From UHGV virus genome UHGV-0038495: a stretch of DNA of 64,000 nt; one strand, 5' to 3'. This DNA comes from a virus. Position numbers and translations under genes: made by a program. The notes under the pieces were generated by a model. That model was not told where the DNA came from, did not search any database, and saw only the letters and a list, made by a program, of their open reading frames with translations. Below, piece by piece: positions 4,810 to 64,000 of this stretch; the stretch's first letter is position 1, and each line of letters opens with the position of its first letter.

Positions 4810-5352
4810 TTAAATTTTACAATAAAATTCTTTATTGTATATTATCATATTATCATATCTTTCAGTATTATCATTATATTCTCCGTCTATTAATTCATAT
4901 ATTCTCTGATTTTTACTGCCGCGCATGGCAATTTCATAGGATTTCTGAGATTCAATAAACGGTCCATCTATTATCATATTCACTTTTAATTTTTTTAAGT
5001 TTTCTATTAATTTCTTTGGGAGTTCTTTAAAGAGATAACCCGTCCAAATCCTAATAATTATATCTGGATAGTGTTTTCTTACTTCCTTTACAATAGAAAG
5101 AACAGGTGCACAATTTGCTGGGGTTAGTGGCTCGCCGCCAAGTATATTAAAGTTACGTACTATATTATTCTTTGCTATTGCTTCTATAATTTCATTTAAT
5201 GTTTCTTCTGTAAATAACTTGCCATAGAGATAATCCCACGTCTCTGGGTTAAAACATCCGGTACAATGGTGTGGGCATCCAGATACGAAGAGGGAAACCG
5301 AAATTCCCTCTCCATTGGCTATATCATTATACTTTATATTAGCGTAATTCAT
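4810..5352 (-). CDS. nrdG: Anaerobic ribonucleotide reductase activating protein (radical SAM)
   Basis: N-terminal GCPHHCTGCFN Cys cluster. Size 180 aa. Lies immediately downstream of nrdD. Confidence 0.8.
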   Translation of the reverse strand: MNYANIKYNDIANGEGISVSLFVSGCPHHCTGCFNPETWDYLYGKLFTEETLNEIIEAIAKNNIVRNFNILGGEPLTPANCAPVLSIVKEVRKHYPDIIIRIWTGYLFKELPKKLIENLKKLKVNMIIDGPFIESQKSYEIAMRGSKNQRIYELIDGEYNDNTERYDNMIIYNKEFYCKI

Positions 5353-18603: not shown

Positions 18604-18644
18604 TTAAAACTCCTTATAATATATATAAAAATTCTTCTATAGTG

Positions 18645-19760
18645 CTAGTGTGAAAATGCCCAACCGTAAACAATTCTTGTTTGAAAAAGTTTTAAAAAAG
18701 TATCTAACCCACAATCTATAGGACTATCTTTATACCCCAATAAATCATTTCTATCAAATACAATAGAAATGGTAATTTCATTACCAAATGTTTTAGCTTG
18801 TTTAATTAACTTTTTCTTTACTTTTTTAAATTCTTCACTAGCCTTATCTGTAAAATCTTTATCAAAACATAATACCATTTCTTTCGCGCCAAACTTTTTT
18901 AATAATTCATATTGTCTATTTGATAATGTACTGCCGCAACAGGCAACACTAATATCATTACATGCTCCTACCGCAGTCCGATACTTGAGAACTGACTTTT
19001 CACTCTCAAACACTAATGCTCTACCGGCTCGTTTTATATTCTCTTTACTTTTATCTAAGTTATAGAGATTACCTCCAATTGCGTGATTATAAAGTATACC
19101 ATTTATCCTAAGAGGACGATATTTACCATATTTCTCTGCCTCTGGGATAATTAAGCTGCGTCCGCGCAATCCAATAAATCTACCATTATAATCATAATGA
19201 GGAATAGTAATTTGCTCTCCTCCGGGGTAATACCCAATACGCGCTTCATTCATTACCTCTTGCGAAATACCTTCTTTAAGCCAAGGTACAATAGGAATAT
19301 AAGAAAAACGATTAAGTATACTATCATCATAAGGTTCATATATTATTTCTCTGCCTTTAATACTCTTATGATTTGCGCGCCCAGCATATTTTTGGAAGAT
19401 TTTGGCATCTGCATTATCTAAGGTTTCAAATTCACTTTTCTGTTCTCTTGCAATTCCAAAATAATTTGTAATATAATCAAGTGCTGCACTGATACCTAAG
19501 TCAATATTGCGTTGCACCTTAAAAACTTTACAAGTTAATTCAATTATATCAAATCTATCTTGACACCCAGTAAAACAAGAAAATAATTGAGTATTCTGAT
19601 AATAATATAATTTTTGGCTACCCTCTCCGGGTAGGTTGTGACATATGGTATCAGCGACAAGCCCAAAGGATTTAAAGACTGGGTTGCCGCCAAAGTTATT
19701 AACTAATTCATATATTTGTTCTATTGTAAGAGATTCTTTAACCCTCTGTAGTTCTTCCAT
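18645..19760 (-). CDS. dnaG: DnaG-type DNA primase
   Basis: CHC2 zinc finger CHNLPGEGSQKLYYY....FSCFTGC. TOPRIM with LVFESEKSV (catalytic E) and VLCFDKDFTD (DxD). Confidence 0.7.
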   Translation of the reverse strand: MEELQRVKESLTIEQIYELVNNFGGNPVFKSFGLVADTICHNLPGEGSQKLYYYQNTQLFSCFTGCQDRFDIIELTCKVFKVQRNIDLGISAALDYITNYFGIAREQKSEFETLDNADAKIFQKYAGRANHKSIKGREIIYEPYDDSILNRFSYIPIVPWLKEGISQEVMNEARIGYYPGGEQITIPHYDYNGRFIGLRGRSLIIPEAEKYGKYRPLRINGILYNHAIGGNLYNLDKSKENIKRAGRALVFESEKSVLKYRTAVGACNDISVACCGSTLSNRQYELLKKFGAKEMVLCFDKDFTDKASEEFKKVKKKLIKQAKTFGNEITISIVFDRNDLLGYKDSPIDCGLDTFLKLFQTRIVYGWAFSH

Positions 19761-32636: not shown

Positions 32637-32864
32637 TTATTCTTCCTCCACTATTTCTATAATTTTTTCTATATGTTTATTAACTTCTTCGCCATAATCT
32701 TGTTTAAAAGGACATCTATAATTATCATTAAAATCATCAAAAAAATTGCAACTTAAATCATCTGTTAGTTGTCTATACATTGCAATAGGACAATCAGCAT
32801 AACAGTCTGGTGCATCCGAAATGAAATATTCTGACAAATCTTTAAATATTATTACCTTTGTCAT
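32637..32864 (-). CDS. Small acidic Cys-containing protein
   Basis: DCYADCP...CNFF...C. Confidence 0.35.
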   Translation of the reverse strand: MTKVIIFKDLSEYFISDAPDCYADCPIAMYRQLTDDLSCNFFDDFNDNYRCPFKQDYGEEVNKHIEKIIEIVEEE

Positions 32865-33064: not shown

Positions 33065-33571
33065 TTAAAGGTTTTTATAATATTCTTCCAATATCTCATA
33101 CGACTTAAAAACATCCTCAGATTTGAGCAATTTTTCAAGTTTCTGAGTGTTTTTTGAGGCAAGAGCATCACATAATTCGTTGTCAAGAACACCATTATGA
33201 CCTTTGACCTTGATTACATCGCAAGAGCAAAGGAATGAAAGGTCGTAAAGTTCCTTAACTAAATCTAAATTTTCAACGCGCGCGCCCTTGCTTCGAGTCC
33301 AGTCAGCTCTAGCCCATTTGAACATCCAGTCATTATAAAGATTTACGACGTAGGCTGAGTCACTATAAATCGGAACCGCGAATAAATTTTCACTGCGCGC
33401 CCACTTTAAAGCTTCTATTAGAGCTTTCATTTCCATTCTATTATTTGTAGTATTTTCTTCATAATCAAACCAATACCAAACAATTCCTTTTTCATTGTCT
33501 CTTGCTATCGCGGCAGCGCCTCCTGGTCCAGGGTTTGGAGCTGCGCTTCCATCTGTATATATTTCAATCAT
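33065..33571 (-). CDS. RNase H (RNase HI-like)
   Basis: IYTDGS....GPGG, TNNRMEMKALIEAL, IYSDS. Confidence 0.8.
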   Translation of the reverse strand: MIEIYTDGSAAPNPGPGGAAAIARDNEKGIVWYWFDYEENTTNNRMEMKALIEALKWARSENLFAVPIYSDSAYVVNLYNDWMFKWARADWTRSKGARVENLDLVKELYDLSFLCSCDVIKVKGHNGVLDNELCDALASKNTQKLEKLLKSEDVFKSYEILEEYYKNL

Positions 33572-33763
33572 TTAATTTTCCTCGCATCGTATACAATCAA
33601 TATTAATGACATTAATAAGATTGTTTGTTATATGTTCATCTTGCCAATCGACAATATAAGAGAGTAAATCTGCTACATTTTCTGCATATTTACAAATATC
33701 TTGATTTTTACAATGGTCGCATTTAATAAATAACATTTTTTGATGAATCACTTTCTGTGCCAA
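33572..33763 (-). CDS. Small Cys-rich protein (CxxC...CK[YF] / DCxxCEEN family)
   Basis: CDHCKNQDICKY ... IDCIRCEEN. Paralog of the next two ORFs. Confidence 0.4.
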   Translation of the reverse strand: MAQKVIHQKMLFIKCDHCKNQDICKYAENVADLLSYIVDWQDEHITNNLINVINIDCIRCEEN

Positions 33764-34046
33764 CTACAGGAGAAGTTCCGCTATAAAACTTTACAGGACT
33801 TGATTCTATATTTTTATCTATATATGATTTATTTTTATTTTCCTCACAATGACAAATATCAACACTAATTATATGTAATTTATTTTTATTTTCTTCGCAA
33901 CCCTGGCAATCAATATCAATATTAATTATATCGTCTGCTTCATAACTCTCTATCCAATCGTTCGTATAAAGCTGTAATTTTCTTAAAGGTTCTATAAATT
34001 TACAAAATTTTTTATGGTTACAATGTTCACATTTATTAAAATTCAT
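33723..34046 (-). CDS. Small Cys-rich protein (same family, duplicated CxxCEEN module)
   Basis: CEHCNHKKFCKF ... IDCQGCEEN ... ICHCEEN. Confidence 0.4.
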   Translation of the reverse strand: MNFNKCEHCNHKKFCKFIEPLRKLQLYTNDWIESYEADDIINIDIDCQGCEENKNKLHIISVDICHCEENKNKSYIDKNIESSPVKFYSGTSPVVGTESDSSKNVIY

Positions 34047-34262
34047 TTATCTTAATAACACCTCACTTATAGGGTTTAGCTCATTTAATTTAGAAGTTCT
34101 TATCTCGGAATAGACTTGCTTCGGTTCAAAATAAATACATTTTAAAGTAATCGTATAAATAGGTGAATTACCCTTTAATTCATTGACCTTATTTTCTATA
34201 TCTGTAATTTCCGAAATATACTTACAAATAGATACATTTTTACATTTAGAACAATATTCCAT
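34047..34262 (-). CDS. Small Cys-rich protein (same family)
   Basis: CSKCKNVSICKY. Confidence 0.4.
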   Translation of the reverse strand: MEYCSKCKNVSICKYISEITDIENKVNELKGNSPIYTITLKCIYFEPKQVYSEIRTSKLNELNPISEVLLR

Positions 34263-41686: not shown

Positions 41687-41730
41687 AACTTTCTATAATT
41701 ATTATAACAAATTTTTTTGAGATTTTGAAA
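41687..41730 (-). promoter_or_regulatory. Conserved promoter cassette copy
   Basis: aactttctataattattataacaaatttttttgagattttgaaa (plus strand). Minus-strand reading gives TTCAAA-N17-TGTTATAAT. Confidence 0.5.
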
Positions 41731-43739: not shown

Positions 43740-44588
43740 CTATAAACTCCTGTACTTCATTTTTCTTTTTGCGAACTCTATTGCAAGCATATAATCTTCC
43801 TCATGTCTAGTACCAGAATGTTCTTTATGAACTTTATTTTCAAATTCCTGTAAACTACCACTAAAACATCCGCAAGAAACAATAATTTCACCTCCACCAT
43901 TTGTTGCAAATGTTGTATATCCTTCTCTACTGCCTATTGGACCAACTACAAAATAATCAGTCATTTTTTCAACATATGCTTTACCTGATAGATGTGCATT
44001 GCCAGATATTCTTACAGACCCACTTACCTGTGCTTCACCAGTAACCTGTGCGAAACCAAGTATAGTTGCTTTATCAGACACCTTGGAGTTACCATATATC
44101 CGTGCTTTATCTAATAAAAACACATTTCCAGATACTTGGGCATTATCATATATACGAGAATCGTCATGTATATGTGCATAATCACGAACTATTGCACAGC
44201 CGCAAACACATGAATTTTCATACAGCTGGGCATTTTCTAAAATCTGTGCATTACCATAAACTATAGCACCATTATGGATTTTAGCATTACCAGATATTTG
44301 AGCATTACCGGCTATTCTTACGTCATCTGAGAGTGATGCATTTCCGAAAACTCGTGCATACTGAGATACTAATGCATTATCACGAACTATTGCATTTTCA
44401 CAAACCCAAGCACTATTAGCTACCCAAGCATTACCTTCATGACTTAAATTATCTTCACTTTCAATATACCCACCTAGTTCACCTGTTATGATATTTCTAA
44501 AATCTTTTAATGCTACTATTCGATATAATCTATGTCCAAAAATTTCTATAAAATCATCTTTAAGTAACTCATATTTCCTGTTTACCAT
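43740..44588 (-). CDS. Hexapeptide-repeat (left-handed beta-helix type) protein, long paralog (about 25 repeats)
   Basis: Same N-terminal (LYRIVALKDF..ITGELGGYIESEDNLSHEGNAWV) and C-terminal (VGPIGSREGYTTFATNGGGEIIVSCGCFSG) modules as 4239..4799, with an expanded NAxIxx array. Confidence 0.55.
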   Translation of the reverse strand: MVNRKYELLKDDFIEIFGHRLYRIVALKDFRNIITGELGGYIESEDNLSHEGNAWVANSAWVCENAIVRDNALVSQYARVFGNASLSDDVRIAGNAQISGNAKIHNGAIVYGNAQILENAQLYENSCVCGCAIVRDYAHIHDDSRIYDNAQVSGNVFLLDKARIYGNSKVSDKATILGFAQVTGEAQVSGSVRISGNAHLSGKAYVEKMTDYFVVGPIGSREGYTTFATNGGGEIIVSCGCFSGSLQEFENKVHKEHSGTRHEEDYMLAIEFAKRKMKYRSL

Positions 44589-44592
44589 ATTA

Positions 44593-45024
44593 TTAATTTC
44601 CTTCTATTTCCCAAGTAAGCATTTTTTCAACACTAAATCTTGTATAATTAGGGTCGCAAAAACCAAATAGCCCTTTATGTAACTCATACGTCAGCATATA
44701 TTCTGTTTCATTTTCACTTGGTTGCCAAAATATGTTTCCAAGTGTATCTCTATAAATCTCTCCATGCTGTAATACTTCTAAAAAATGCCATTCTCTTTTT
44801 GTTAATGTAGGTGTCTCTTCATGCTCTTTATAAAACCATTCATAGCGTTTTTGGATACAAGGTTTATCTTCTTCTTCATAACTATCAAAGATACAATCTT
44901 TACAATTCGAGAGCGAACAAGTTTTTATACAATTATCTGCTGGTGCATTTCGTATAACTGCTATACTCTGACATTTACTTGCATTTTCTAATATAATATC
45001 TTTAAAAAACTTAAAATTTGTCAT
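44593..45024 (-). CDS. Cys-rich small protein
   Basis: CQS...C..C.L..CKDCIFD.....KPC....W. Confidence 0.4.
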   Translation of the reverse strand: MTNFKFFKDIILENASKCQSIAVIRNAPADNCIKTCSLSNCKDCIFDSYEEEDKPCIQKRYEWFYKEHEETPTLTKREWHFLEVLQHGEIYRDTLGNIFWQPSENETEYMLTYELHKGLFGFCDPNYTRFSVEKMLTWEIEGN

Positions 45025-45089
45025 TTTTTTTCTCCTTTTCTTTTTTTTCTATAATTATTATAGCAAATTTTTTTAAAAAATTTTAATAG

Positions 45090-45656
45090 TTATTTTTTAT
45101 CAGACTTTTCTTTGCAGTCACAGCAATCTCCGCATGGAACTGTAGATGAAACTGTTTTTGTACTATGGTCATGGTTGTCATAAGTATTGCATTGATCAGG
45201 GTGAAACATTAATGTTTCCGCTTCATTTATTAATTGTTGCAAATAAGAACCATAAATTAAATCATCTTTCTCTACATGAATTGAAGCACTGCCATTTGCA
45301 CTTTCTGTTGGCAAGACTCCTCCTTTATTTAAAGCTTTTGCAACAGCATTAAAAGATTCTGCTGTTAGAAATTGTTCATTTGGAAAAGAAGAATCTTCAA
45401 TAAAACGCCACCTCGTAACGTGTGTTTTTTTACTTTTATTATATCTAGCGTCATCAATATATTTCATAAGAGCAATCCAATCTTTTCTACTCCAATAACC
45501 AGACTCTCCATGTCCAATAACTTCATTGAATTGAACGCATCCCCATTCTGGTAAAGAAATTTGACTTTTTACAGTTTGCCCATGTTCGCAAAGATTTTGA
45601 CATGAATCACAACGAGTACAAATTTCTTCTGTTACTGTTTTGCCTTGGTCGCCCAT
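45090..45656 (-). CDS. Cys-rich protein
   Basis: N-terminal CTRCDSCQNLCEHGQTV. C-terminal CGDCCDCKEK. Immediately downstream of the radical-SAM gene. Confidence 0.45.
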   Translation of the reverse strand: MGDQGKTVTEEICTRCDSCQNLCEHGQTVKSQISLPEWGCVQFNEVIGHGESGYWSRKDWIALMKYIDDARYNKSKKTHVTRWRFIEDSSFPNEQFLTAESFNAVAKALNKGGVLPTESANGSASIHVEKDDLIYGSYLQQLINEAETLMFHPDQCNTYDNHDHSTKTVSSTVPCGDCCDCKEKSDKK

Positions 45657-45657
45657 A

Positions 45658-46893
45658 TTATAACCTCCTTGCTATAATACTATTGAAATACCTTATAAAA
45701 GAATCACTATTACTATCTCGCATATTTTCTATTAAATTGCGCGCCAAGTAAAAATTCATTAACTTCCAAGAGCAATCCATATTTGCATGAGTATATAAGT
45801 TACCAAACAAATCCATATTAGTAGAAGGACAAGATTTATTCTTACATATTTCTTTTCTTGGACAATCTATACATAAAGAAGGCGTTTCGCAGATTACAAT
45901 AGAAGAAGAATTAATAAATCTATTTATAAGATTAATATGTCTTGCTTTCTTATATCCAGTTTCTATGTTTCCTAAGTAAAACTTACTTCTCTTACCATGC
46001 GTGGCTTGTTCTTGACATCCATAGATAGAACCATCATAACCTATTCCCACGCAATCTTCACCCATTCCACAGTGATGCGCGCTGCGGCTATAAAATATTT
46101 CCTGCTCGCACTGAATATTTTCCTTAATAGCATCTGAAATTTGAATAAAATCTATAAATGGCTTCTTATTATCACTAAAGACTTTATCATAAAATTCATA
46201 AATCATGCCTAATTGTTCAAAAAGTATCATTTTACTCTCAGCCGTCCAGTTTTCTCGAACGTTTGGGGTAAAAAAGCAGTTAGAAAAACCCATTCGTAAA
46301 GCATAAATAAAATTATCATAAAGAAAACATGCACTTTGCGGGGTTATTGTAGCTCGGAAAGTAACTTCTGGGAATAATTTTATCATTGCAGGAATAATAT
46401 CTTGTAACTTCTCAAAGCTACTATTACCATCTTTACAAGGTCTGTTCATATCCTGAGTCTGCTTCGCGCCATCCATTGAAAAATGAGGATAAATATTATG
46501 TTCTTTCATCCATAAAAGACGTTTATAAGTTAATAAAATTCCATTTGTAGTAATAGAAAATGTGAACATCTTAGGATATGTTTGCTCAGCATAGTTTACA
46601 ACAGGAACAATAATAGAATCCCAGCAAAGTAATGGCTCACCACCGAAGAAGGTTATTCTACCTTCAGCTTTATTTTGCTCTTGTATATTATTAGCTAAAT
46701 AATCTACCGCGCTTTTTGCTGTGTCTAAAGTCATATAATGAGGATTCTGCTCAGTAAAACAATAAACACAACAATTATTACAATCATCTGTTACATTAAA
46801 AACAGCATTTGTAGGTTTATGTTTTAATTTATCATTTTGCTGCGCTTTTTGCTGGCGCGCGCCTATAATCTTTTTTCTTTCTTCTTTTGTCAT
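45658..46893 (-). CDS. Radical SAM enzyme with C-terminal SPASM/twitch-like Cys clusters
   Basis: DDCNNCCVYC contains Cx3Cx2C. GGEPLL. C-terminus CGMGEDCVGIGYDGSIYGC and CIDCPRKEICKNKSCP auxiliary-cluster-like motifs. Confidence 0.7.
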   Translation of the reverse strand: MTKEERKKIIGARQQKAQQNDKLKHKPTNAVFNVTDDCNNCCVYCFTEQNPHYMTLDTAKSAVDYLANNIQEQNKAEGRITFFGGEPLLCWDSIIVPVVNYAEQTYPKMFTFSITTNGILLTYKRLLWMKEHNIYPHFSMDGAKQTQDMNRPCKDGNSSFEKLQDIIPAMIKLFPEVTFRATITPQSACFLYDNFIYALRMGFSNCFFTPNVRENWTAESKMILFEQLGMIYEFYDKVFSDNKKPFIDFIQISDAIKENIQCEQEIFYSRSAHHCGMGEDCVGIGYDGSIYGCQEQATHGKRSKFYLGNIETGYKKARHINLINRFINSSSIVICETPSLCIDCPRKEICKNKSCPSTNMDLFGNLYTHANMDCSWKLMNFYLARNLIENMRDSNSDSFIRYFNSIIARRL

Positions 46894-47013
46894 ATTCTAC
46901 CACTTTCCTTTTTTCTTTTTTAACTTTCTTTCTTTTAATATATTATAACATAAATTTTACTGTTTCCAAATTTACTATAAAAAAAAAGGCTACCTTTCAA
47001 AGTAGCCTTTATA

Positions 47014-51866: not shown

Positions 51867-51958
51867 TGGAGGAAGGAGTGAGATTCGAACTCACATGCCG
51901 AAGAACTTCGACCTAACGCTTTAGCAGAGCGCCCTCTTTACCATTTGAGTACCCTTCC
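51867..51958 (-). tRNA. tRNA-Ser (GCU), class II with long variable arm, CCA encoded
   Basis: Acceptor GGAAGGG/TCCTTCC. Anticodon stem GCGCU/AGCGU, loop CU-GCU-AA. 7-bp variable-arm hairpin GTCGAAG-TT-CTTCGGC. T arm GTGAG-TTCGAAT-CTCAC. Ends TCCA. Confidence 0.8.
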
Positions 51959-52312
51959 TTATCTATATCCTACTTTATCATACATTGGCGCGAATGTCTT
52001 TACTCTATTATGAGTTACAATACCTAACAATTTCTTTTTATTATCTTTTTCTTTAATATAAATCTTGGATTCATCTGTACTGACCGCGCCTCTACCTTTA
52101 GGGTACGTAAACCGCTTCGCGCATTTTTCAAGATATTTCATATCAACCGTTGGTATTTCCATGCGCCCAGCAGAACTAATTATAATGAATACTGGTAAGC
52201 CATCCTTGTTAAAATAAGGATTGGCTTCAGCAATCTTACCACACCAATCTATATGAAATTCAGAATGAACATCTGTAGTTATAAGGTGTGTCTTTATCTT
52301 TACCTCTTGCAT
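51959..52312 (-). CDS. hypothetical protein
   Basis: ORF on the coding strand between tRNAs. Confidence 0.35.
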   Translation of the reverse strand: MQEVKIKTHLITTDVHSEFHIDWCGKIAEANPYFNKDGLPVFIIISSAGRMEIPTVDMKYLEKCAKRFTYPKGRGAVSTDESKIYIKEKDNKKKLLGIVTHNRVKTFAPMYDKVGYR

Positions 52313-52314
52313 AT

Positions 52315-52521
52315 TTATCTCCTTTGTAAGTTTGCGAAAAAATCTGTTATATCTTTATTTTCTTTTCTTGTTTCTATTGTTTCACTTGGTTCTATACTAT
52401 TTGTTTTATGATTTGGATTATTTTCTTTCCAACATTTCAAAAAATGTCTTGACATTCTACTTTCTTTTTCATTTTCAAATTCGCATTTACATATTGGGCA
52501 AATATACATTTTATTCTCCAT
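52315..52521 (-). CDS. Small zinc-ribbon protein
   Basis: CPICKC....H..C. Confidence 0.35.
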   Translation of the reverse strand: MENKMYICPICKCEFENEKESRMSRHFLKCWKENNPNHKTNSIEPSETIETRKENKDITDFFANLQRR

Positions 52522-52875
52522 TTTAAGTTTTCAGGTTTAGATTAAATTGGCGGCGGATGAAGGTAACGCTCCTTCTCTTTTTGGGTCAAAGCCAAATGTA
52601 CTAACTTTTATACGAATCCGCTATATTAAAGCGGGTTCTAAGGTCAACCCGCAGACCGTTCAGAAAGGGGACAAAAAATGAATAAAAAAATATCTTCAAA
52701 TGGAAACTTAAGCCTTTCTAAGTTTCCTCTCTAATTTTCTCTTTACTCCCGGAGATTTCATATTAATTTCTCTCGCGTTAAGTTTTGCAAGTCGCGCACT
52801 ATAAATTGCTTTCTTCTGTTCTCTTGTCATAATCTTTCTCCTTTAGTATATCTTCAAATTCTTTCCTTTTTTTAT

Positions 52876-52950
52876 TGGTGCGCCCGGACGGTTACGATCC
52901 GACCTAATCGAAATTAAAAGTTTCGTGCCTCTCCACTAGGCTACGGGCAC
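52876..52950 (-). tRNA. tRNA-Lys (UUU), non-canonical T arm
   Basis: Perfect 7-bp acceptor GTGCCCG/CGGGCGC plus ACCA. D stem GCCT/AGGC. Anticodon stem CGAAA/TTTCG, loop CU-UUU-AA. T stem has one T-T mismatch and the T loop is ATCGTAA rather than TTCRANY. Confidence 0.5.
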
Positions 52951-52954
52951 ATGT

Positions 52955-53030
52955 TGGTGGAGGTTAAGAGATTCGAACTCTTGACCTTCTGCGTGCAAAG
53001 CAGATGCTCTCCCAACTGAGCTAAACCCCC
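52955..53030 (-). tRNA. tRNA-Ala (UGC), CCA encoded
   Basis: Acceptor GGGGGTT/AACCTCC with the G3-U70 Ala identity pair. D arm GCTCAGTTGGGAGAGC. Anticodon loop UU-UGC-AC. T arm AAGAG-TTCGAAT-CTCTT. Confidence 0.8.
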
Positions 53031-53367
53031 ATTTATTCCTTTTTCCTCCGTCAGAGCAGATTAAGGATAACTGGCACGCGTACTATAAGGATTTTCTCCC
53101 TCAAGCGGAAAACCCGTTAGAAAATAACTACTTCTAATTTAGCAAATCTATACCTTAGACCTATCGAAGAAACATTTTAAAGCAATCGACTTCCGCGGGT
53201 GCAACTACTTTGCAATGCTACCGTATCTTTAGTGATGTGTATAAATCAGTATCCGAGAGACGCCACGAGGAGGCATTAGAAGACTTTTTATCTCTCATAA
53301 GTGGAAGCTGCAATCTCCCACTTTATCTATCATAATGTGAGGAGGTGAATTATGATACATTTCATGC

Positions 53368-53441
53368 TGGAGCCAATAACGAGAATCGAACTCATAACTA
53401 AGCCTTACCATGGCTTTGTTTTACCTTTAAACTATATCGGC
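53368..53441 (-). tRNA. tRNA-Thr (GGU), CCA encoded
   Basis: Acceptor GCCGATA/TATTGGC (one G-U). D arm GTTT-AAAGGTA-AAAC. Anticodon stem AAGCC/GGCTT, loop AU-GGU-AA. T arm ATGAG-TTCGATT-CTCGT. Confidence 0.7.
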
Positions 53442-54247: not shown

Positions 54248-54913
54248 TTACCAATAAATACTTAACTGATTATTTGTTATTTCATATTCATATCCCTGCT
54301 CAGCAAGAATCTTTATTAAATCATTTAAGTGTTCCATAATACATTTTCCTACTACTACGCCACACTCCTCAAAATTCATGGAAGCACTTCTCTCACCTTC
54401 ATTTGCTTTGCCCATAATCAATATTCCGATATATGTTATAATAGAATCAAAATTGTTAAGTCTATTATTCGCAAGATTAATCATTTCATCTACGGATTTG
54501 ATATTATAATATTCTTCCATTGTTTCTTCCATTCTTACATTTAATAATAAATTATCTTCATCTTTTAACCATGCATCTAACACCTTACCACAACTCCAAT
54601 TATATACATTATGAAGTGCACAGTAATCGCAATCTATATCTTCATCTAGACATTTACATATGCCTAATTTAATATTTTCTTTTCTTTTATCTATTGCGAC
54701 ATTATCAACAAGAAGAGAGAGAATTTTATCTTCCCACTCTTTATCATTCCACTTAGACAATAACCATTCAAGAGAAATATCTTCAACATCTAAAGTATTT
54801 TCTTCTTCATCTAATATTAATATATCTTTCTTGAAGAAATCTTTTCCATCTGTTCTATATGTCTGTATTATTATATCTGCCAAAGCATCTTTATATTTAT
54901 CATAATTTCTCAT
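54248..54913 (-). CDS. Cys-x2-Cys family protein, intact two-module copy
   Basis: N-module M.NYDKYK..LADI.IQ.Y.TDG.....LGICKCLDEDIDCDYCA....W.CG....WLKDED. C-module MEEYYNIKSVDEMINL....NFDSIITYIGILIMGKANEG. Colinear with the split pair 55652..56038 plus 55471..55671. Confidence 0.5.
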   Translation of the reverse strand: MRNYDKYKDALADIIIQTYRTDGKDFFKKDILILDEEENTLDVEDISLEWLLSKWNDKEWEDKILSLLVDNVAIDKRKENIKLGICKCLDEDIDCDYCALHNVYNWSCGKVLDAWLKDEDNLLLNVRMEETMEEYYNIKSVDEMINLANNRLNNFDSIITYIGILIMGKANEGERSASMNFEECGVVVGKCIMEHLNDLIKILAEQGYEYEITNNQLSIYW

Positions 54914-55094
54914 GTTATTTTCCTTTTATTTTTCTTTCTATAATTATTATAGCAAAATTTTTAAAGTTTTAAAAATGAGAGAATTTTGGTTGACGGTATT
55001 CACAGGTTTCTCTCAGAACCACCGGTAAAGTAATCTCTCAACCTTACAAATATATTATATCAAAAATTTTAAAGTTTTTGCAATAGAAAACAAA

Positions 55095-55470: not shown

Positions 55471-55671
55471 TTATTCACCTAAGTAACGCGTAAAGCATCT
55501 TCTTATAGATACACCATATTCTTCAAGATTTATATAAATTTCTTGCCCGCCTTCGTTTGCTTTACCTTCAATTAATCTTCCTATATATTTTATAATAGAA
55601 TCAAAATTATCAAGTTTATCATGCATAATTTCAACCATTTTATCAGCGGATTTAATATAATTCTGTTCCAT
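55471..55671 (-). pseudogene. C-module fragment of the duplicated Cys-x2-Cys gene (truncated)
   Basis: MEQNYIKSADKMVEIMHDKLDNFDSIIKYIGRLIEGKANEG... aligns with residues ~130-195 of the 221-aa copy. The downstream DNA still resembles the C-terminus of copy 1 but is out of frame and has a stop. Confidence 0.45.
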
Positions 55672-56038
55672 TGTCTATTACCTCATTACTTTCATCTTCT
55701 AGCCAGTGTCTTATTGAACGACTGCATCCCCAGTCAGACATATTAGCAAACGCGCAATGATTACAATTTATCTCATCGCAAGAGCATAAACCTAATGCAA
55801 TATCATTATCCTCACGGCTGTCTAATGCTATTGTATCTACAAGTTTACAAAGAATTTCAGGCTTCCACCAGAATTTTTCATCCCATCTTAAAAGAAGCCA
55901 ATCAAGCGGAATACTCTCAATACACTCAAAATCTTTTAATATTAAGTTATCTTTACTCCATAAAGATTCTCCATCTGTCTTATAATTCTGTATTACTATA
56001 TCTGCTAAAACTTCTTTATATTTATCATAATTCGTCAT
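55652..56038 (-). CDS. N-module fragment of the duplicated Cys-x2-Cys gene
   Basis: MTNYDKYKEVLADIVIQNYKTDGE....LGLCSCDEINCNHCAFANMSDWGCSRSIRHWLEDES. Overlaps the next ORF by 20 nt in another frame. Confidence 0.45.
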   Translation of the reverse strand: MTNYDKYKEVLADIVIQNYKTDGESLWSKDNLILKDFECIESIPLDWLLLRWDEKFWWKPEILCKLVDTIALDSREDNDIALGLCSCDEINCNHCAFANMSDWGCSRSIRHWLEDESNEVIDNGTELY

Positions 56039-57014: not shown

Positions 57015-57071
57015 CCTCAACTTTCTATAATTATTATAACAAATTTTTTGAGAATTTGAAAGTCGGAGCCG
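57015..57071 (-). promoter_or_regulatory. Promoter cassette copy (long variant, near-identical to 61935..61991)
   Basis: caactttctataattattataacaaattttttgagaatttgaaagtcgga. Confidence 0.5.
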
Positions 57072-58854: not shown

Positions 58855-60154
58855 CTGGTTCTAACCACCCTTCTGTTACTTCTTTCTCTTGCCAGCAATC
58901 TATATGATATTCATTATTGTTACGATCAGATATAGTATATTCTGATGGATTTATAACTCCACCACAATAAGGACATAACTTAGGCGCGCGGCATTTGGTA
59001 CAAACTCTTAAGGTTACACCGTCAATATTTTTACCCACTTCTCCGGGTTTAATCACATCCCCGCATTTTAAACAGTGAACCTCGTTATCAAATAAAATAT
59101 TCTCATATTTACTATACTGCTGTTGCGCATTAATCCAGTAAGTTAATTTGCCATAGAAATCATTATATCCATTGGCATTGGATATAATTAAAGATACTGG
59201 ACATTCATTTGTCGCTCTTGTAATAGAATGGTCAACATGACTTTTAGCAATATCTGCTTCTATTTTTGTATAAGGTATATTTATATTATTATTGCTTAAT
59301 AATTCCCTTAAATAACCAACAATTTTTTCAGTAAGCTGTTCGCTGTCATATGGATACGCGCGCCCAGGTACAATGAAATCTTGGTCTATGTAAACGAGCT
59401 GGCGCCACATCTTAGAATTCCATTCTCCTACGCCATCCCAATCATAGTTCTTTTTATCATCTTTTAAATAAGCTACTATAGTATTAGGTGCGCCAATATA
59501 TGCAAGAGTAGAAGCATGATATAAACCATTGTCATGCCAATTATAACAAGACTTCCAATTGGAGCTATTATCTGATAAAGTTAAATAGTCCATCGGTAAT
59601 GCGCTCAAGCACAAAGTACCGCGCAAAGTCTTGGTTGAGAGGATTTTAGCGTGCTCACGCCTGAACTCCTCAAACTCTTCCATGTCAAGGCCCAAGGCCT
59701 CAGATACTTTACGCAGCGCGCGCATTATCTTCATTCCTTCTTTTATCTGGATTTCTACACCATTAAGGCATATATTATCTTTTACTTTAGAAGTATTACC
59801 AATTAAGTTATTTACTTCCACAAAATCTAAAAGCAAACCTTTAATCTGTTCCGCTGTTGCACCATCTAAGTTTGTCGTTGATATATAGTAATGTACTGCC
59901 GCGGTATAATTAGAAACAAACTTATTATTATCTAAAAGCTGAGTCATATTATAATCAAGACTTGCTGAGTTTGCATTAATTATAAAATTAGGATATTCTT
60001 TATACATATTGGGTCCAAGCAAGAGCTGAATAAAATCAGACTTCTTCCAAAAGTTTTTTAAATAACTTTCTGCGCCCATAAAATCCTGTTCATAGAATGA
60101 AATATATTTATCTACAAGTTCAATCTGTTCCTTTAAAGTATTATTATCAATCAT
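58844..60154 (-). CDS. hypothetical protein with C-terminal zinc ribbon
   Basis: 436 aa. C-terminus CLKCGD....CTKC....CPYCGG. Confidence 0.4.
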   Translation of the reverse strand: MIDNNTLKEQIELVDKYISFYEQDFMGAESYLKNFWKKSDFIQLLLGPNMYKEYPNFIINANSASLDYNMTQLLDNNKFVSNYTAAVHYYISTTNLDGATAEQIKGLLLDFVEVNNLIGNTSKVKDNICLNGVEIQIKEGMKIMRALRKVSEALGLDMEEFEEFRREHAKILSTKTLRGTLCLSALPMDYLTLSDNSSNWKSCYNWHDNGLYHASTLAYIGAPNTIVAYLKDDKKNYDWDGVGEWNSKMWRQLVYIDQDFIVPGRAYPYDSEQLTEKIVGYLRELLSNNNINIPYTKIEADIAKSHVDHSITRATNECPVSLIISNANGYNDFYGKLTYWINAQQQYSKYENILFDNEVHCLKCGDVIKPGEVGKNIDGVTLRVCTKCRAPKLCPYCGGVINPSEYTISDRNNNEYHIDCWQEKEVTEGWLEPDDE

Positions 60155-60232
60155 TCTGTCATAAGCCTTCCTTTAATTATTAATTTATTTTATACAAATA
60201 TTATAACAAGTTTTTTAAAAAATTTGAAAAAG

Positions 60233-60430
60233 TTAAATTAATAAATGGAGTGTGTATTTTCCTAATGTATAAATCGCAAGAGCAAAGATGACTGCGAATA
60301 CTGAATCAAGAACCAATTTTAATATGCCATCATAATAAGTAATATCATATATAAAAGCAAACATTAAAAAAGCAGTGCTAAACAATAAGAATAACATCAT
60401 AACTGCATTAAGAATAATTATAAAGGACAT
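60233..60430 (-). CDS. Small membrane protein (two predicted transmembrane segments)
   Basis: Hydrophobic throughout. Confidence 0.35.
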   Translation of the reverse strand: MSFIIILNAVMMLFLLFSTAFLMFAFIYDITYYDGILKLVLDSVFAVIFALAIYTLGKYTLHLLI

Positions 60431-60582
60431 ATTATCACCCCACTAAACACCTACTCATAATATACAAAAGTATACATTCTAATATAAAGATACAAGTTTT
60501 ATTAAAAAGATCTTCCTGCACGATTATCTGGTAAAGTAAAAAACTTATTAAAGATACAAGAATAACAAAGAATAACAGCGCG

Positions 60583-60771
60583 CTAAACATTAGTCACCTC
60601 ACCTATCATTTTAAAAATAGTAAACATAATAAACATAGACATAATAATAGATATAAGAATATTAACATCTATCTCCTCTCCAAACTCAAATATATCTACA
60701 ATAATGCTACAAAGATTCATAAGCAGCAATCCTAAGATAACTATAAGAGTATATACAATTACTAATCCCAT
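60583..60771 (-). CDS. Small membrane protein
   Basis: Hydrophobic throughout. Confidence 0.35.
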   Translation of the reverse strand: MGLVIVYTLIVILGLLLMNLCSIIVDIFEFGEEIDVNILISIIMSMFIMFTIFKMIGEVTNV

Positions 60772-60885
60772 TTTTCATTCCTTTCTATTGCGCAATAAGT
60801 TATTCCAAAATATAATATCGCGGTAGTCAGCGCGCCAAATAATGGATATATAAACTCAAACATTAAAAAGCTCCAATCTAAGCTG

Positions 60886-61365
60886 CTATAATACAGCTTT
60901 CTTCATACTGTCTATCATGTAAGTAACGTGTCTATCACTTTTTAAAGTTCCATCTTCATTACCTATAAAACTCCAAGGTAAATCTATTGAAACAATACCT
61001 TTTCCTTCCATTGGGTCTTCTTCACCATAAGGCACATACCAACCCCAAAGTTTATGGAAGCGCGCGTGACTAGATTTGAGCGGCTCAAAATTCAAATCCT
61101 TAGCGCAAGAGCCGCAATAAATACGAATAGTATCCCTTGGTCCGCCGAATCCTAAGACATCATGTACTTTATGCGCCGCCCCAGCAGACACAGTAAAAGC
61201 GCATTTCTCCTTTGGATATGCTCTTGCATATTCTAATTCAGTATACCATCTTGCATCTCTTGTATTGCCAGTTCTATTATGCTTAATCTTTACGTAATTT
61301 TTTCCATTCTTCTTGAATGGTTCACTTTCTATTGTATAATTTTTCTGATATGAAGGTGCTATCAT
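60886..61365 (-). CDS. hypothetical protein
   Basis: ORF on the coding strand. Confidence 0.35.
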   Translation of the reverse strand: MIAPSYQKNYTIESEPFKKNGKNYVKIKHNRTGNTRDARWYTELEYARAYPKEKCAFTVSAGAAHKVHDVLGFGGPRDTIRIYCGSCAKDLNFEPLKSSHARFHKLWGWYVPYGEEDPMEGKGIVSIDLPWSFIGNEDGTLKSDRHVTYMIDSMKKAVL

Positions 61366-61368
61366 TTT

Positions 61369-61908
61369 TTACTTATCCTCTCTATTATTAGGGTCTATAC
61401 CCATTTCAAAGTCATATACTATAGGTTTATTATTTTCACAATAGGAAACAATGCTATCAACCGGCGGCTTCTGCATTTCACTTGCTATACGATTTATCTG
61501 ATTCTGCGCTTCTACCTGTAAAGTCTGTGCGTCCTTTAAAACATACTGTAGATAATCTCTAGTATGAGCATTATTTTTAGCAGTAATCTTATTATGTTTT
61601 ATCTGTCTGATAAACCACAAACTTCTTAACCAAGTTATATAATTATTACCCATTATATATTCTTTTTCATACATCATATAATTATCAGGTATATAAGTAA
61701 AAACTCCTTTTAAATCATATGGATTAGTAATTTTGTACTTTTCAGGTGCTAAATTATAAAAATCTTGTATTTTTTCAAGCGGCAATCTTATTGGTGCTAA
61801 ATCTTGTGCTTCCTTATAATCTATAAATTTTACAATAAGATACCCCATACCTACTGCGCCAGTAGCAAAAGCAATAACTCCTGATATCACTAAACTTACC
61901 ATTATCAT
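61369..61908 (-). CDS. Membrane-anchored hypothetical protein
   Basis: N-terminal transmembrane segment MIMVSLVISGVIAFATGAVGMGYLIV. Confidence 0.35.
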   Translation of the reverse strand: MIMVSLVISGVIAFATGAVGMGYLIVKFIDYKEAQDLAPIRLPLEKIQDFYNLAPEKYKITNPYDLKGVFTYIPDNYMMYEKEYIMGNNYITWLRSLWFIRQIKHNKITAKNNAHTRDYLQYVLKDAQTLQVEAQNQINRIASEMQKPPVDSIVSYCENNKPIVYDFEMGIDPNNREDK

Positions 61909-61934
61909 ATAAAATCCCTCTTTTCTTTTTTTCC

Positions 61935-61991
61935 TTCCTTTAACTTATATATATATTATAACAAATTTTTTTGAGAATTTGAAAGTCGGAA
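61935..61991 (-). promoter_or_regulatory. Promoter cassette copy (long variant)
   Basis: ttataacaaatttttttgagaatttgaaagtcgga. Confidence 0.5.
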
Positions 61992-62003
61992 ATATAAATA
62001 GAA

Positions 62004-62033
62004 AAAGAGTTATCTAATTAAAGATAACTCTTT
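62004..62033 (-). terminator. Intrinsic terminator with AATTAA loop directly upstream of a promoter cassette
   Basis: Minus strand AAAGAGTTATC-TTTAATT-AGATAACTCTTT followed by TTCTATTTATATTT. Confidence 0.5.
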
Positions 62034-62228
62034 ATAAGGAGTAAGCATTATATGTATATTAAAGGCGCTGCGCGCCTTGGTTTATGTTATATTATCATAT
62101 ATTTATTAATAATATAAATATTTATAATATATTAATATAATATATTATATTATATATTTATTATCTAGGTCTTTCCTCTTAATCCTCCACACACTTTTGG
62201 CTTTTTTGTTTTTGTTTTTTCTGTAAGA

Positions 62229-62260
62229 AAATTATAACACAAATTTTTTGTTTGTCAAAT
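62229..62260 (-). promoter_or_regulatory. Promoter copy with perfect TTGACA -35 and TGTGTTATAAT extended -10
   Basis: Minus strand gaTTTGACAaacaaaaaatttgtgTTATAATttt. Confidence 0.5.
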
Positions 62261-62494
62261 CAACAGTGAAATACTGTAAAAACGCAATAGCAAACAGAAA
62301 AAGAACGGTCAGCGCGCAGCAAAAAATTTTTTTGGGATTTATACTGCCGCAAACGCGCACTTTTAAAAATGAGAGGGCGACTAAAAACGAATCTCAGACG
62401 CTTTTATTTTTTTAGTTATTTTATTACAAAAATGCCTTATATGAGAAAAATATAAGGCATGATATTTTTGAGATTTATTTTTAGTTACGCGTCA

Positions 62495-62731
62495 TTATAT
62501 TTCTTCCATTAACCAATCGTACATTGCGCTCAGACAATCCTCTTCTTCCCAGAATCTACAATCTTCACAATATAGATCGTTACAAATTATTCCTTCTCCC
62601 TTTGCAGTCGCGCCATGGTCTTTAGAATATATGTGCGCCATTACTTCATCTTGAGTTTTTTCAGAAAGACTATTGTCTCCTTCAAATGTTTTATACATTT
62701 CTTCTGAGAACACTTTTCTAATTCTTTTCAT
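62495..62731 (-). CDS. Cys-x2-Cys small-protein family member (tandem array 1 of 5 or more)
   Basis: LYCEDCRFWEEEDC....WLMEEI-COOH. Confidence 0.45.
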   Translation of the reverse strand: MKRIRKVFSEEMYKTFEGDNSLSEKTQDEVMAHIYSKDHGATAKGEGIICNDLYCEDCRFWEEEDCLSAMYDWLMEEI

Positions 62732-62733
62732 AG

Positions 62734-63135
62734 TTATACCTCTTCATTAAGATACTCTTTCTTTAATTCAGTACAGGAGCCATATTTATCAAAAAGACAG
62801 TTATGACAACTTAGTAAATTACACTTAGCATAGTTATCCCATTTATCTACTGTTATTGTATCATAGATATAGTCCATAATATCTTCATTCTGCTTCTCAA
62901 AATTTGTTGTTATCCATTTATGTGTTGCCCGAATAGCTTCAGCTATATTTTTATGACAAGCAGAATTTATTAAACAATCGTCACAGTAAAGTTCCCTACA
63001 AAAATATATTTTATTATCACCAATACCTATACCAGTATCTTCAGCCAATAAATCAAACAATACTTCTTTATCTCTCTCAAATCTTGTCATTATATCTCCT
63101 CCTCTAACCAAGCTATTAATGTAGGCGTACAGCAA
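62734..63135 (-). CDS. Cys-x2-Cys small-protein family member (two modules)
   Basis: LYCDDCLINSAC ... LSCHNCLFDKYGSC....YLNEEV-COOH. Confidence 0.45.
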   Translation of the reverse strand: MLYAYINSLVRGGDIMTRFERDKEVLFDLLAEDTGIGIGDNKIYFCRELYCDDCLINSACHKNIAEAIRATHKWITTNFEKQNEDIMDYIYDTITVDKWDNYAKCNLLSCHNCLFDKYGSCTELKKEYLNEEV

Positions 63136-63470
63136 AAATAAGAATCTTCAAACCCAAAGAGTTTACATGTTTTAGAAGTACAAGGCACAGTTCTACACCT
63201 CTGAAGCGCGCCATCTTTATCTATCGCTATAACTTCTAATATAAGTTCATATATCTGCGCGCGTTTTAGTTTGTACTGCCAATTACGCTTAAGCCAATCA
63301 AGTTTCATTTCTTTGCCATTAAGACATTTAGACTCAAAAGCGCAATCATCGCACTCTATCTCTCTATCGACGCAGAGAAAAGGCTGATTAGTCTTTGCAT
63401 CTACACCCAATTCTTTCTGTAATAGTTCAAAAATTCTATTCAGTATCTGTGGATTCTCTATTCTCTTCAT
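63090..63470 (-). CDS. Cys-x2-Cys small-protein family member (two modules)
   Basis: ECDDCAFESKC ... CTSKTC......CC....WLEEEI-COOH. Confidence 0.45.
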   Translation of the reverse strand: MKRIENPQILNRIFELLQKELGVDAKTNQPFLCVDREIECDDCAFESKCLNGKEMKLDWLKRNWQYKLKRAQIYELILEVIAIDKDGALQRCRTVPCTSKTCKLFGFEDSYFCCTPTLIAWLEEEI

Positions 63471-63804
63471 CTATTTTCTCCCATATAAAATGATTTGCAA
63501 GATTGCTACACTCACCTGTAAAACTAAAAATACATTCATAGCAATCCATGTCTGTGCAACCACCTATAATATATTTTATGGTAAGTCCAACTGCCGGGCG
63601 CGTTCTATTTACTTTCTTTGTAAATATTTCATCAAAATGTTCCTCATAATAGTTTGCACGATTCACTGCATCACAATGAGCAAAACTTTGAAATACACAA
63701 TCCTTACAGAGTGTTTCTTCACAAAGATTTACTTCATTTACATCTTTATCTATTGCATAGGGCACAAGCGCAAGAGCTTCACAGTATTTAGTTTTCCAGC
63801 TCAT
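63436..63804 (-). CDS. Cys-x2-Cys small-protein family member (two modules)
   Basis: LCKDCVFQSFAHC ... CTDMDCYECIFSFTGEC.....W. Confidence 0.45.
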   Translation of the reverse strand: MSWKTKYCEALALVPYAIDKDVNEVNLCEETLCKDCVFQSFAHCDAVNRANYYEEHFDEIFTKKVNRTRPAVGLTIKYIIGGCTDMDCYECIFSFTGECSNLANHFIWEKIDEENRESTDTE

Positions 63805-63805
63805 A

Positions 63806-64000
63806 TTAAACCTCCTCCAGTAAATAATCTATTCTGCGCTGCGCACAGTTTCCATCTTCAGTGTAGAACATGCAAGAGGAACAGAAATCATCATCCCGTA
63901 CATTGCGGCAGTACCTTACTTTATTGTTCTGAATAGCTAAGTCATAGCTACCTTCGCGCACTATCTGGTCTATGTAGTCTTTGATATTATGTTTATCTAA
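63806..64000 (-). CDS. Cys-x2-Cys small-protein family member, partial (runs off the window)
   Basis: Minus-strand translation ends ...YCRNVRDDDFCSSCMFYTEDGNCAQRRIDYLLEEV*. GGAGGAGG ribosome-binding site for the downstream member. Confidence 0.4.
   Translation of the reverse strand, partial: LDKHNIKDYIDQIVREGSYDLAIQNNKVRYCRNVRDDDFCSSCMFYTEDGNCAQRRIDYLLEEV

Follow-up and report, generated by a model that had tools for sequence, protein, structure and literature searches.

A predicted phage-restricted four-cysteine domain in tandemly arrayed genes of the virus genome UHGV-0038495

Closest described systems and the present locus

WhiB-like proteins (PF02467) are small, carry four invariant cysteines including a C-x2-C pair, occur as many paralogues per genome and have phage-encoded members. 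Their hallmarks are the spacing C-x(14-30)-C-x2-C-x5-C, a G[VI]WGG turn and a basic C-terminus, and the members from Actinobacteria and actinophages redirect transcription by docking on the housekeeping sigma factor. Here we describe a family of small four-cysteine proteins in the virus genome UHGV-0038495, analyzed over a stretch of 64,000 nucleotides (nt; hereafter the window). Its core is an array of five consecutive minus-strand open reading frames (ORFs), designated E, D, C, B and A, running from 64000 to 62495. Both families may modulate host machinery via protein-protein contacts. On the other hand, the window family has no Pfam match at E<=1, a different Cys spacing, and neither the G[VI]WGG turn nor the basic tail; its module contains a predicted beta-hairpin and has no fold match, and its host belongs to the Firmicutes rather than the Actinobacteria. 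By sequence these proteins do not qualify as WhiB-like, and the resemblance appears to be one of logic only.

Three further groups invite comparison. Structural Zn(Cys)4 sites, such as the alcohol dehydrogenase (ADH) lobe (C-x2-C-x2-C-x7-C), treble-clefs and zinc knuckles, resemble the module in their closely spaced Cys ligands: a hydrophobic or aromatic residue comes after the CxxC knuckle, and the last ligand is placed at a helix start. The host-takeover module of SPO1 and the yo* genes of SPbeta are likewise short, densely packed genes of unknown function with probable sigma-A promoters in large Firmicute phages. They encode unrelated small proteins, whereas the present array is a paralogous expansion of a single Cys4 domain; a tblastn search of the phage collection with the window protein H and with P0068 returned no SPbeta or SPO1 record. 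Finally, SCIFF and other precursors of ribosomally synthesized and post-translationally modified peptides (RiPPs) are Cys-rich small ORFs of Clostridia-type genomes, and one member of the window family (H) lies near a gene for a radical S-adenosylmethionine (rSAM) enzyme. Unlike such precursors, the window proteins are predicted folded domains, show no rSAM linkage across genomes and have no NCBIfam match.

The catalogued family phrog_22292, which comes without any description of function or structure, covers the module at about profile positions 1-65. Its members are proteins of about 155 amino acids (aa) with one module and a C-terminal domain; A-E differ from them in lacking that domain, and in B-E the module is duplicated internally. 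As far as sequence can tell, this is a small phage-encoded Cys4 domain that is distinctive in its two-module, tandem-array form.

A paralogous module family in the window

What is repeated is a module about 55-60 aa long, consisting of an N-terminal helix, a beta-hairpin, four Cys and a C-terminal helix with the sequence W-L-x-E-E. The hairpin signature is ..[IF][AG]VDKxTNK.. in the general layout of the domain and ..[IA][AG][IV]DK.. in the window modules. The Cys spacing is C-x4(-8)-C-x2-C-x5-11-C, and a Phe stands two residues past Cys3 (C-[hydrophobic]-F). The family is further defined by an aromatic residue after Cys3 and by [WYF][LIF] 6-10 residues after Cys4, and most of the 11 complete window modules conform to this definition. 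Deviations are seen in the second module of C (C2), where four residues separate Cys2 from Cys3 (C-x4-C-x4-C), and in the first modules of B and C (B1, C1), where either [WYF][LIF] is more distant from Cys4 or the position of the fourth Cys differs. In total, the window holds eight proteins with 11 complete modules, or 12 if the first module of E, which lies off the window, is counted; B, C, D and E contain internal module duplications. The genes, and one ORF related to them, are as follows (HMM, hidden Markov model).

Gene E, 63806..64000, minus strand: partial, second module of two (HMM independent E-value 1e-10)
Gene D, 63436..63804, minus strand: 122 aa; modules 63625-63801 and 63460-63624
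Gene C, 63090..63470, minus strand: 126 aa; modules 63270-63455 and 63093-63266
Gene B, 62734..63090, minus strand: 118 aa from the ATG at 63090; modules 62890-63075 and 62737-62889
Gene A, 62495..62731, minus strand: 78 aa; one module (62498-62656); last in the operon (HMM 7.7e-11)
Gene G, 55652..56038, minus strand: 128 aa; one full module (55685-55867); paralogue of the N-terminal part of F
ORF 55471..55671, minus strand: 66 aa; overlaps the end of G; homologous to F residues 132-198
Gene F, 54248..54913, minus strand: 221 aa; one full module (54551-54736)
Gene H, 44593..45024, minus strand: 143 aa; N-terminal module (44815-45021) and the class-I C-terminal domain of PHROG 22292

The start codon and first module of E lie past the window end. 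We regard E as a two-module protein because its full-length orthologue P0026 (118 aa) has two modules; the E orthologues in the related contigs L004 and L005 are likewise 118 aa long. The longer TTG-initiated ORF of B (133 aa, to 63135) probably does not give the real start, and B orthologues begin with MTRFERDK, i.e. at the ATG at 63090. D carries an acidic tail beyond its second module. H shows the canonical architecture of the family and is matched at 3e-15 by the database-derived profile introduced below.

Several tests argue that the eight proteins share one real paralogous module family. All-versus-all blastp among 109 minus-strand ORFs connects B with C (1e-8), B with D (2e-3), C with F (4e-4), F with G (2e-33) and A with E (9e-3), and A-H and D-H reach about 0.05 each. 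When HMMs were built with one protein left out, the omitted protein ranked first of 1233 six-frame segments each time, at E 1e-15 to 1e-2, and unrelated segments did no better than 0.03-0.7. A profile derived from 110 database sequences, each less than 40% identical to any window module, recovers each of the eight proteins, with E-values from 2e-21 to 2e-10; the segment ranked next has 0.28. A Cys/aromatic regular expression gives 13 matches, 12 of them within the eight proteins, compared with a mean of 1.0 in residue shuffles. It is true that the modules are only 17-33% identical to each other and that some blastp E-values are marginal. Nevertheless, the view that Cys spacings recur by chance in AT-rich ORFs, or that the ORFs are not genes at all, has a practically negligible probability and was rejected: the leave-one-out and database-profile tests split the eight proteins cleanly from the 1225 other six-frame segments, orthologues in at least four other phage contigs are under purifying selection as judged by the ratio of non-synonymous to synonymous substitution rates (dN/dS), and about 150 database clusters contain the domain.

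The original prediction, made by reading the same DNA, had proposed a paralogous, Cys-rich, probably metal-binding family of small proteins not assignable to a named family, and the present results, including those from Pfam and NCBIfam, support it in this respect. The five consecutive ORFs at 62495-64000 were all located as A-E, and the seven Cys strings quoted for them all occur in the array. Four of the five array C-termini read [WY]LxEE[IV], as had been stated; they are those of A, B, C and E ([WY]L[LMNE]EE[IV]). F (54248..54913), G (55652..56038) and H (44593..45024), named there as relatives, are confirmed by profiles, and the loose framing as phage accessory proteins seems right. Chance had been named as a possible refutation, and similarity beyond Cys spacing in both HMM tests speaks against it. 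The proposed unit C-x2-C-x5-8-C is present, but the true unit is larger, with a fourth Cys 4-8 residues upstream of C-x2-C. The estimate of more than 12 members has to be lowered to the eight proteins and 11 complete modules given above. Two further candidates were rejected as members: the ORF at 32637..32864 shows no similarity to the module in HMM searches, and the triplet at 33572..34262, which hhalign places against the module profile with a probability of 1.8%, is a separate small family.

This triplet (minus strand; 63, 107 and 71 aa) is a paralogous family of its own (blastp J-K 3e-10, J-L 4e-4), with the pattern C-x-[HK]-C-x5-C-K-[YF] ... I-D-C-x2-C-E-E-N. It has no database annotation and adjoins an RNase H-like gene (33065-33571).

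The wider family

Word-indexed homologue search is insensitive for so short a domain, and relatives were collected by an exhaustive profile search over 1.84e9 database representatives. This search gave 151 clusters at E<=1e-3, one of them a spurious repeat protein. The relatives are mostly 60-220 aa long, with a usually N-terminal module that typically starts MTNYEKYKDEI..., and 29 of 169 proteins in the wider family contain two modules. Among 160 non-redundant modules, the four Cys are kept in 158-160; the Phe after Cys3 occurs in 144, the Trp in 148 and the Leu next to it in 130, and 128 modules have the second Glu of EE. Conserved positions are limited to the Cys ligands and core hydrophobics; the only conserved surface-type residues are the Lys of VDK and the acidic EE. 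The median isoelectric point (pI) of the modules is 5.0 across the family, and 78% of them lie below 6. In the window all eight proteins are strongly acidic (pI 4.3-5.3, net charge -3 to -22).

The C-terminal motif had been described earlier as a conserved C-terminus. The motif is indeed present, but most relatives continue as '...WLxEEYKEP...' into a C-terminal domain; W-L-x-E-E is therefore the end of the last helix of the domain, internal in most members, and not a separate tag. At least three unrelated classes of C-terminal partners (I, II, III) occur, all without known function. Class I follows the pattern ...LTxxExxxL...ARD..G.L...KP...FxFIKWEDxEP.... Fusions to DUF3310, DUF6378, ORF6N and DUF4406-like domains are rare, with about one protein each among 146 relatives.

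Of these 146 relatives, 124 match phrog_22292 and 22 match PHROG 21026, both families of unknown function. In the window, phrog_22292 is matched by H at 3.8e-17 (profile positions 1-103 of 155) and by B at 2.1e-5, and more weakly, over the same N-terminal region, by E (0.0025), G (0.016), A (0.025) and C (0.11); D gave no match to this profile. The full phrog_22292 architecture, i.e. module plus class-I C-terminal domain, is found in H only, while A-E are module-only or two-module proteins and F and G have other extensions. Explanation of the family by a known domain had been named as a second possible refutation. It applies only weakly, in that PHROG 22292 covers the module; searches of Pfam and NCBIfam gave nothing. 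Likewise, ten family proteins had no PADLOC match at E<=0.01, a negative that says little on counter-defense, as PADLOC-DB holds defense rather than anti-defense genes.

The relatives come from viral contigs, Thomasclavelia phages, and Lachnospiraceae, Wujia and Firmicutes CAG:238 genomes, and thus from gut Firmicutes throughout. The source records offer no names beyond 'hypothetical protein [Lachnospiraceae bacterium]' and, in Thomasclavelia phage TR-TP1, a spurious 'ankyrin repeat protein'. In profile searches of genome contigs, the MTNYEKY subset was found in two genomes, and the alignment of A-type sequences matched none. No literature was found on the PHROG identifier or on SPbeta-like Lachnospiraceae prophages. 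Judging from this sampling, the domain is restricted to phages and is catalogued only as PHROG 22292/21026. One group of genes that recurs unannotated in gut Firmicute phages can now be treated as a domain whose boundaries and invariant residues are defined, whose fold is predicted with confidence and for which a set of architectures is known: single module, double module, and module plus variable C-terminal domain, often in tandem arrays. It remains a domain of unknown function, well characterized, and does not amount to a new mechanism.

Predicted structure and probable metal site

The AlphaFold2 prediction for the H module, based on a 130-sequence alignment, reached a predicted local distance difference test (pLDDT) score of 91.2, with all five models at 89-91. 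The model shows a helix (2-15), two strands (20-23 and 32-34) and a C-terminal helix (55-64). Cys1 is placed directly past strand 2, Cys2 and Cys3 in a short helical turn that is followed by a loop, and Cys4 at the first position of the C-terminal helix. For the two-module protein B, a model with pLDDT 84 and predicted template modeling score 0.80 was obtained; it was good in one of five models.

A profile search of the PDB with the module gave nothing significant, the best match being the structural-zinc segment of ADH3 (E about 1), and a PDB profile search with the class-II C-terminal domain gave no match. Earlier it had been proposed to check for a zinc-ribbon or treble-clef fold; on superposition the module matched neither. 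The fold, which has no structural neighbor in the PDB, is probably new. The four Cys would most likely bind one metal in a structural Zn(Cys)4 site, the alternative being an iron-sulfur (Fe-S) cluster. We favor zinc because of the ligand geometry in the model, with a knuckle and a ligand at a helix start, and because of the ADH-like local pattern.

Operon organization and expression signals

The array genes are tightly spaced. B and C overlap by 1 nt, C and D by 35 nt, the start codon of C sitting 35 nt within D; gaps of 1 nt and 2 nt separate D from E and A from B, respectively. The junctions read ...CTG GAG GAG GTT TAA T ATG from E to D (63806-63826), ...GAG GAG GAG ATA TAATG from C to B (63090-63110) and ...GAA GAG GTA TAA CT ATG from B to A (62734-62752). 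They follow the form GGAGG-N6-7-ATG, in which the terminal Glu codons constitute the GGAGG/AGAGG Shine-Dalgarno sequence of the next cistron. A, the last gene, ends with GAA GAA (62495-62515), and the share of GAG among the Glu codons of the window is 0.20. The same arrangement of Glu codons and Shine-Dalgarno sequences is conserved in four related contigs. This points to translational coupling of the cistrons, and accounts for the proteins ending exactly after EE[IV].

An extended -10 element, AAAWTTTGnTATAAT (AAAWTTTG[T/C/A]TATAATAATTATAGAAAG), preceded by an A-tract and, at 17 nt, by a TTCAAA-like -35 hexamer, is highly conserved and found in 21 copies in the window (4189-61969). Every copy is on the coding strand and immediately precedes a gene, whereas shuffling predicts 0.29 copies. 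It is also present in related phage contigs; in the relatives that possess E (L004, L005), a consensus extended -10 lies about 35 nt upstream of the E orthologue. The element probably defines a temporal class of transcription units that depend on the host RNA polymerase. Signals relevant to the family are listed here.

62432..62460, minus strand: terminator-like hairpin with an 11-bp stem and a T-run, 35 nt downstream of the A stop codon (from a consensus scan only)
54942..54960, minus strand: promoter element of F, extended -10 sigma-A-type, about 30 nt upstream of the F start
45053..45071, minus strand: promoter element of H, about 30 nt upstream of the H start, separating H from the upstream rSAM operon
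61951-61969, 57029-57047, 54942-54960, 45053-45071, 46938-46956 and 41697-41715, minus strand: examples of the promoter element, as consensus matches

The hairpin at 62432..62460 is the probable end of the E-D-C-B-A transcript. Between this hairpin and the next gene lies a non-coding gap of about 520 bp (61909-62431, minus strand), which is about 79% conserved in L005. It contains a perfect consensus promoter, TTGACA-16-TGnTATAAT (62258-62231), AT-only short repeats (~62075-62165) and a second terminator-like hairpin (62033-62004). An Rfam scan of this gap gave nothing credible. It could encode a small RNA of about 200 nt or represent an origin-like AT-rich element.

Evolution of the array

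Four groups of related phage contigs carry the array, with four to six genes in L001, L004, L005 and L007, in several forms: X-E-D-C-B-A in L005/L006 (six genes, 11 modules), X-E-D-B-A in L004, D-C-B-A in L007/L008, and X-D-(C remnant)-B in L001/L002, so that C is present, absent or a remnant. Orthologues of A are P0011-P0019 and P0048, orthologues of D are P0006-P0009 and genes in L001, L004, L005 and L007, and those of the scattered gene G are P0012 and P0035. Two or three adjacent single-module paralogues also occur in the unrelated gut-phage contigs L009, L013, L016, L017, L020, L021 and L024. As such neighbors are common in unrelated contigs, tandem paralogy is a trait of the family.

The first modules (B1, C1, E1, X1) resemble each other, as do the second modules (B2, C2, D2), and B, C and D align collinearly. 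This points to an ancestral two-module gene that was duplicated in tandem. Among metagenomic variants, B forms P0003 and P0022 have lost the segment between the modules and are reduced to single-module forms of 92 and 54 aa, and in the C forms P0020, P0023 and P0024 a truncation or frameshift follows directly on the first CDDC. Such B deletions and C truncations indicate recombination between modules. The array illustrates cleanly how a domain is duplicated both internally and in tandem, with recombinants at the module level to be seen in metagenomes.

Directly past the A stop codon, the sequence ATATAATGACGCGTAACTAA (62482-62499) repeats the C-to-B junction (ATATAATGACAAG...) and encodes only M-T-R-N-stop. 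It looks like a remnant of the start of a B-type gene (MTR...) left by unequal recombination.

A similar rearrangement is visible among the scattered genes. The N-terminus of F is a degenerate helix (MRNYDKYKD...), and its C-terminal half is homologous to the ORF at 55471-55671 (F residues 132-198; 49% identity, blastp about 2e-17 to 8e-17). F is thus collinear with G plus this ORF, about 1 kb away, so that either F arose by fusion or G and the ORF by a split. Both F and G begin with a stretch (M[TR]NYDKYK...) similar to the N-terminal helix of the family, which suggests a degenerate first module.

Whole-gene dN/dS between orthologues from four or five related phages is 0.07-0.48, which marks the genes as functional and under purifying selection. 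For the non-Cys residues between Cys1 and Cys4, dN is raised in A and B (omega reaching about 1, and in one pair 2.2), in a test that covers 13-24 codons only and is not robust; no such rise is seen in C, D or X. The earlier description of the family as 'diversifying' therefore holds for the old divergence of the paralogues, and not for the orthologues.

Just upstream of related arrays (L004 7008-7490, L001 7117-7548, L005 7354-7821) lies a gene that combines a family-like N-terminus (MTNREFFIKNF...C..GC....C..C.WW.QEYVEP) with a DUF4406-like, i.e. nucleoside deoxyribosyltransferase-like, domain. The N-terminus may be a degenerate module, retained as an appendage of an enzyme. Downstream of the array, L001 contains additional genes compared to the window, a D12-class DNA methyltransferase and an IS605 OrfB/TnpB-type gene (14727-15551, 18595-19656), which shows this region to be a hotspot of accessory-gene turnover.

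Possible functions of the module

Based on this dataset, we tentatively hypothesize that the module is a metal-stabilized, protein-binding scaffold of early accessory proteins. In this SPbeta-like phage, a single phage-restricted domain of about 60 residues has undergone a lineage-specific expansion, and the bound metal would lock a chain that is otherwise too small to fold. Tandem duplication of an ancestral two-module gene gave rise to the E-D-C-B-A operon with its translationally coupled cistrons, and host sigma-A RNA polymerase would probably transcribe the genes early from strong extended -10 promoters. With conservation limited to ligands and core, a free surface and acidic proteins, the compact module is suggested to bind proteins, through a variable acidic surface, rather than nucleic acids. 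It would probably dock on host or phage proteins in the context of host takeover, counter-defense or regulation, and two-module proteins would act as bivalent binders. If a Zn or Fe-S center that binds host proteins is indeed involved, the family would represent a new class of phage effector scaffold and a compact candidate for structural and interaction studies.

Several points weigh against this hypothesis. Arms-race proteins often show positive selection, of which the sequences give no robust sign. The two-module model of B is confident in only one of five runs. That the four Cys would converge on one metal site is suggested only by their invariance and their placement relative to secondary structure. 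Zinc and Fe-S are not separable by sequence, and an anaerobic host (NrdD/NrdG, rSAM) makes Fe-S plausible. Early expression is read from the promoter consensus, the array's own promoter lying beyond the window. Fusions to domains of the nucleotide-metabolism type hint at a different, housekeeping-like role.

The likeliest alternative would be that the four Cys hold an Fe-S cluster, [4Fe-4S] or [2Fe-2S], and that the proteins are redox- or oxygen-sensitive regulators, functionally analogous to WhiB but in Firmicute phages. They are small (60-130 aa), phage-encoded and present as many paralogues per genome, with four invariant Cys, the spacing C-x2-C-x5-C in B1 and C1, an invariant aromatic residue after Cys3 and an invariant Trp after Cys4, and the NrdD/NrdG-like and rSAM genes again point to an anaerobic host. 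We consider this alternative unlikely. A related and rather more speculative idea, to which we would assign a low probability, sees the module as a new metal-cluster fold, possibly an oxygen-labile Fe-S one, that serves as a 'warhead adaptor'. The constant Cys4 domain would dock on one host machine, for example RNA polymerase/sigma-A or a defense hub, and variable C-termini or second modules would provide specificity. If so, the arrays would be the Firmicute-phage counterpart of WhiB-type or anti-defense effector families.

The module could also be an N-terminal regulatory or assembly domain that tethers enzymes of nucleotide metabolism or DNA modification, together with their stand-alone paralogues, into a phage replication or precursor-synthesis complex. 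Fusions to DUF3310, DUF6378 and PHROGs named 'nucleotide kinase', the degenerate module in front of the DUF4406-like domain just upstream of the array (L004 7008-7490), and the genes for single-stranded DNA-binding protein, DNA methyltransferase, thymidylate synthase and dUTPase next to arrays of other phages all fit this idea. However, each such fusion accounts for about one protein among 146, most members carry a C-terminal domain of unknown function or none, and the neighbors in the window are all unknowns, which renders it improbable.

Cys4 mini-domains are often nucleic-acid binders, and the proteins might accordingly be zinc-finger regulators of phage expression, acting as repressors or antiterminators or by binding RNA; two related phages have a gene for a helix-turn-helix protein upstream of the array, and one family member is fused to an ORF6N/anti-repressor-type domain. 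The acidity of all eight proteins (pI 4.3-5.3) and of the modules in general (median 5.0, 78% <6), and the lack of a conserved basic patch among 160 modules, make this distinctly improbable.

Very improbable, finally, is the suggestion, made earlier and rejected here, that the proteins are substrates, or RiPP-like precursors (sactipeptide-, ranthipeptide- or SCIFF-type) of the rSAM enzyme encoded at 45658-46893: the modules are Cys-rich and the rSAM gene (C-x3-C-x2-C, SPASM-like C-terminus) lies two genes upstream of H, but H has its own promoter, the other seven family genes are 9-18 kb from the rSAM gene, L032/L033 encode a 99%-identical H with no rSAM or 188-aa gene within 5 kb upstream and with a 233-235-aa gene lacking the rSAM motif in this position, homologues of the rSAM enzyme and of the 188-aa protein are missing from all 34 loci retrieved, NCBIfam gives no SCIFF or RiPP match, and a well-folded predicted domain (pLDDT 91) conserved over its whole length is unlike a leader-plus-core peptide.

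Source phage and further observations in the window

The window has a G+C content of about 33%, and its substantial ORFs are all encoded by the minus strand. A 1287-aa protein of the DNA polymerase III alpha type is 38-39% identical to YorL of Bacillus phage SPbeta. The gene content further includes NrdD/NrdG-like genes (4810-7467), topoisomerase subunits, an rSAM enzyme and five tRNAs. A nucleotide search with 60000-64000 against GenBank phages found no match, and PHROG and Pfam annotation of the neighbors of the array in the window returned unknowns only. From the similarity of the polymerase, the presence of NrdD/NrdG and rSAM genes and the lack of a nucleotide match among GenBank phages, we infer that UHGV-0038495 is a large phage or prophage of the SPbeta-like kind with no counterpart among sequenced isolates, and that its host is an anaerobic gut Firmicute, probably a Lachnospiraceae/Clostridia strain.

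The rSAM gene near H is part of a two-gene cassette (45090-46893, minus strand) with its own promoter (46938-46956), which is absent from L032/L033. The first gene encodes a 411-aa rSAM enzyme (Pfam Radical_SAM 1.3e-12) with the motif C-x3-C-x2-C and a Cys-rich, SPASM-like C-terminus; the second encodes a 188-aa protein with Cys clusters at both ends (CTRCDSCQNLC..., ...CGDCCDCK). By its composition this may be a mobile RiPP-like or modification cassette.

Two hexapeptide-repeat (beta-solenoid) paralogues are encoded 39 kb apart on the minus strand, at 43740-44588 (282 aa), immediately downstream of H, and at 4239-4799 (186 aa). They match each other by blastp at 4e-46 and are covered by the Pfam Hexapep and YdcK-type solenoid families. 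The tRNA cluster at 51867-53441 (minus strand) comprises Ser-GCT, Gln-TTG, Lys-TTT, Ala-TGC and Thr-GGT, with copies of the promoter element interspersed.

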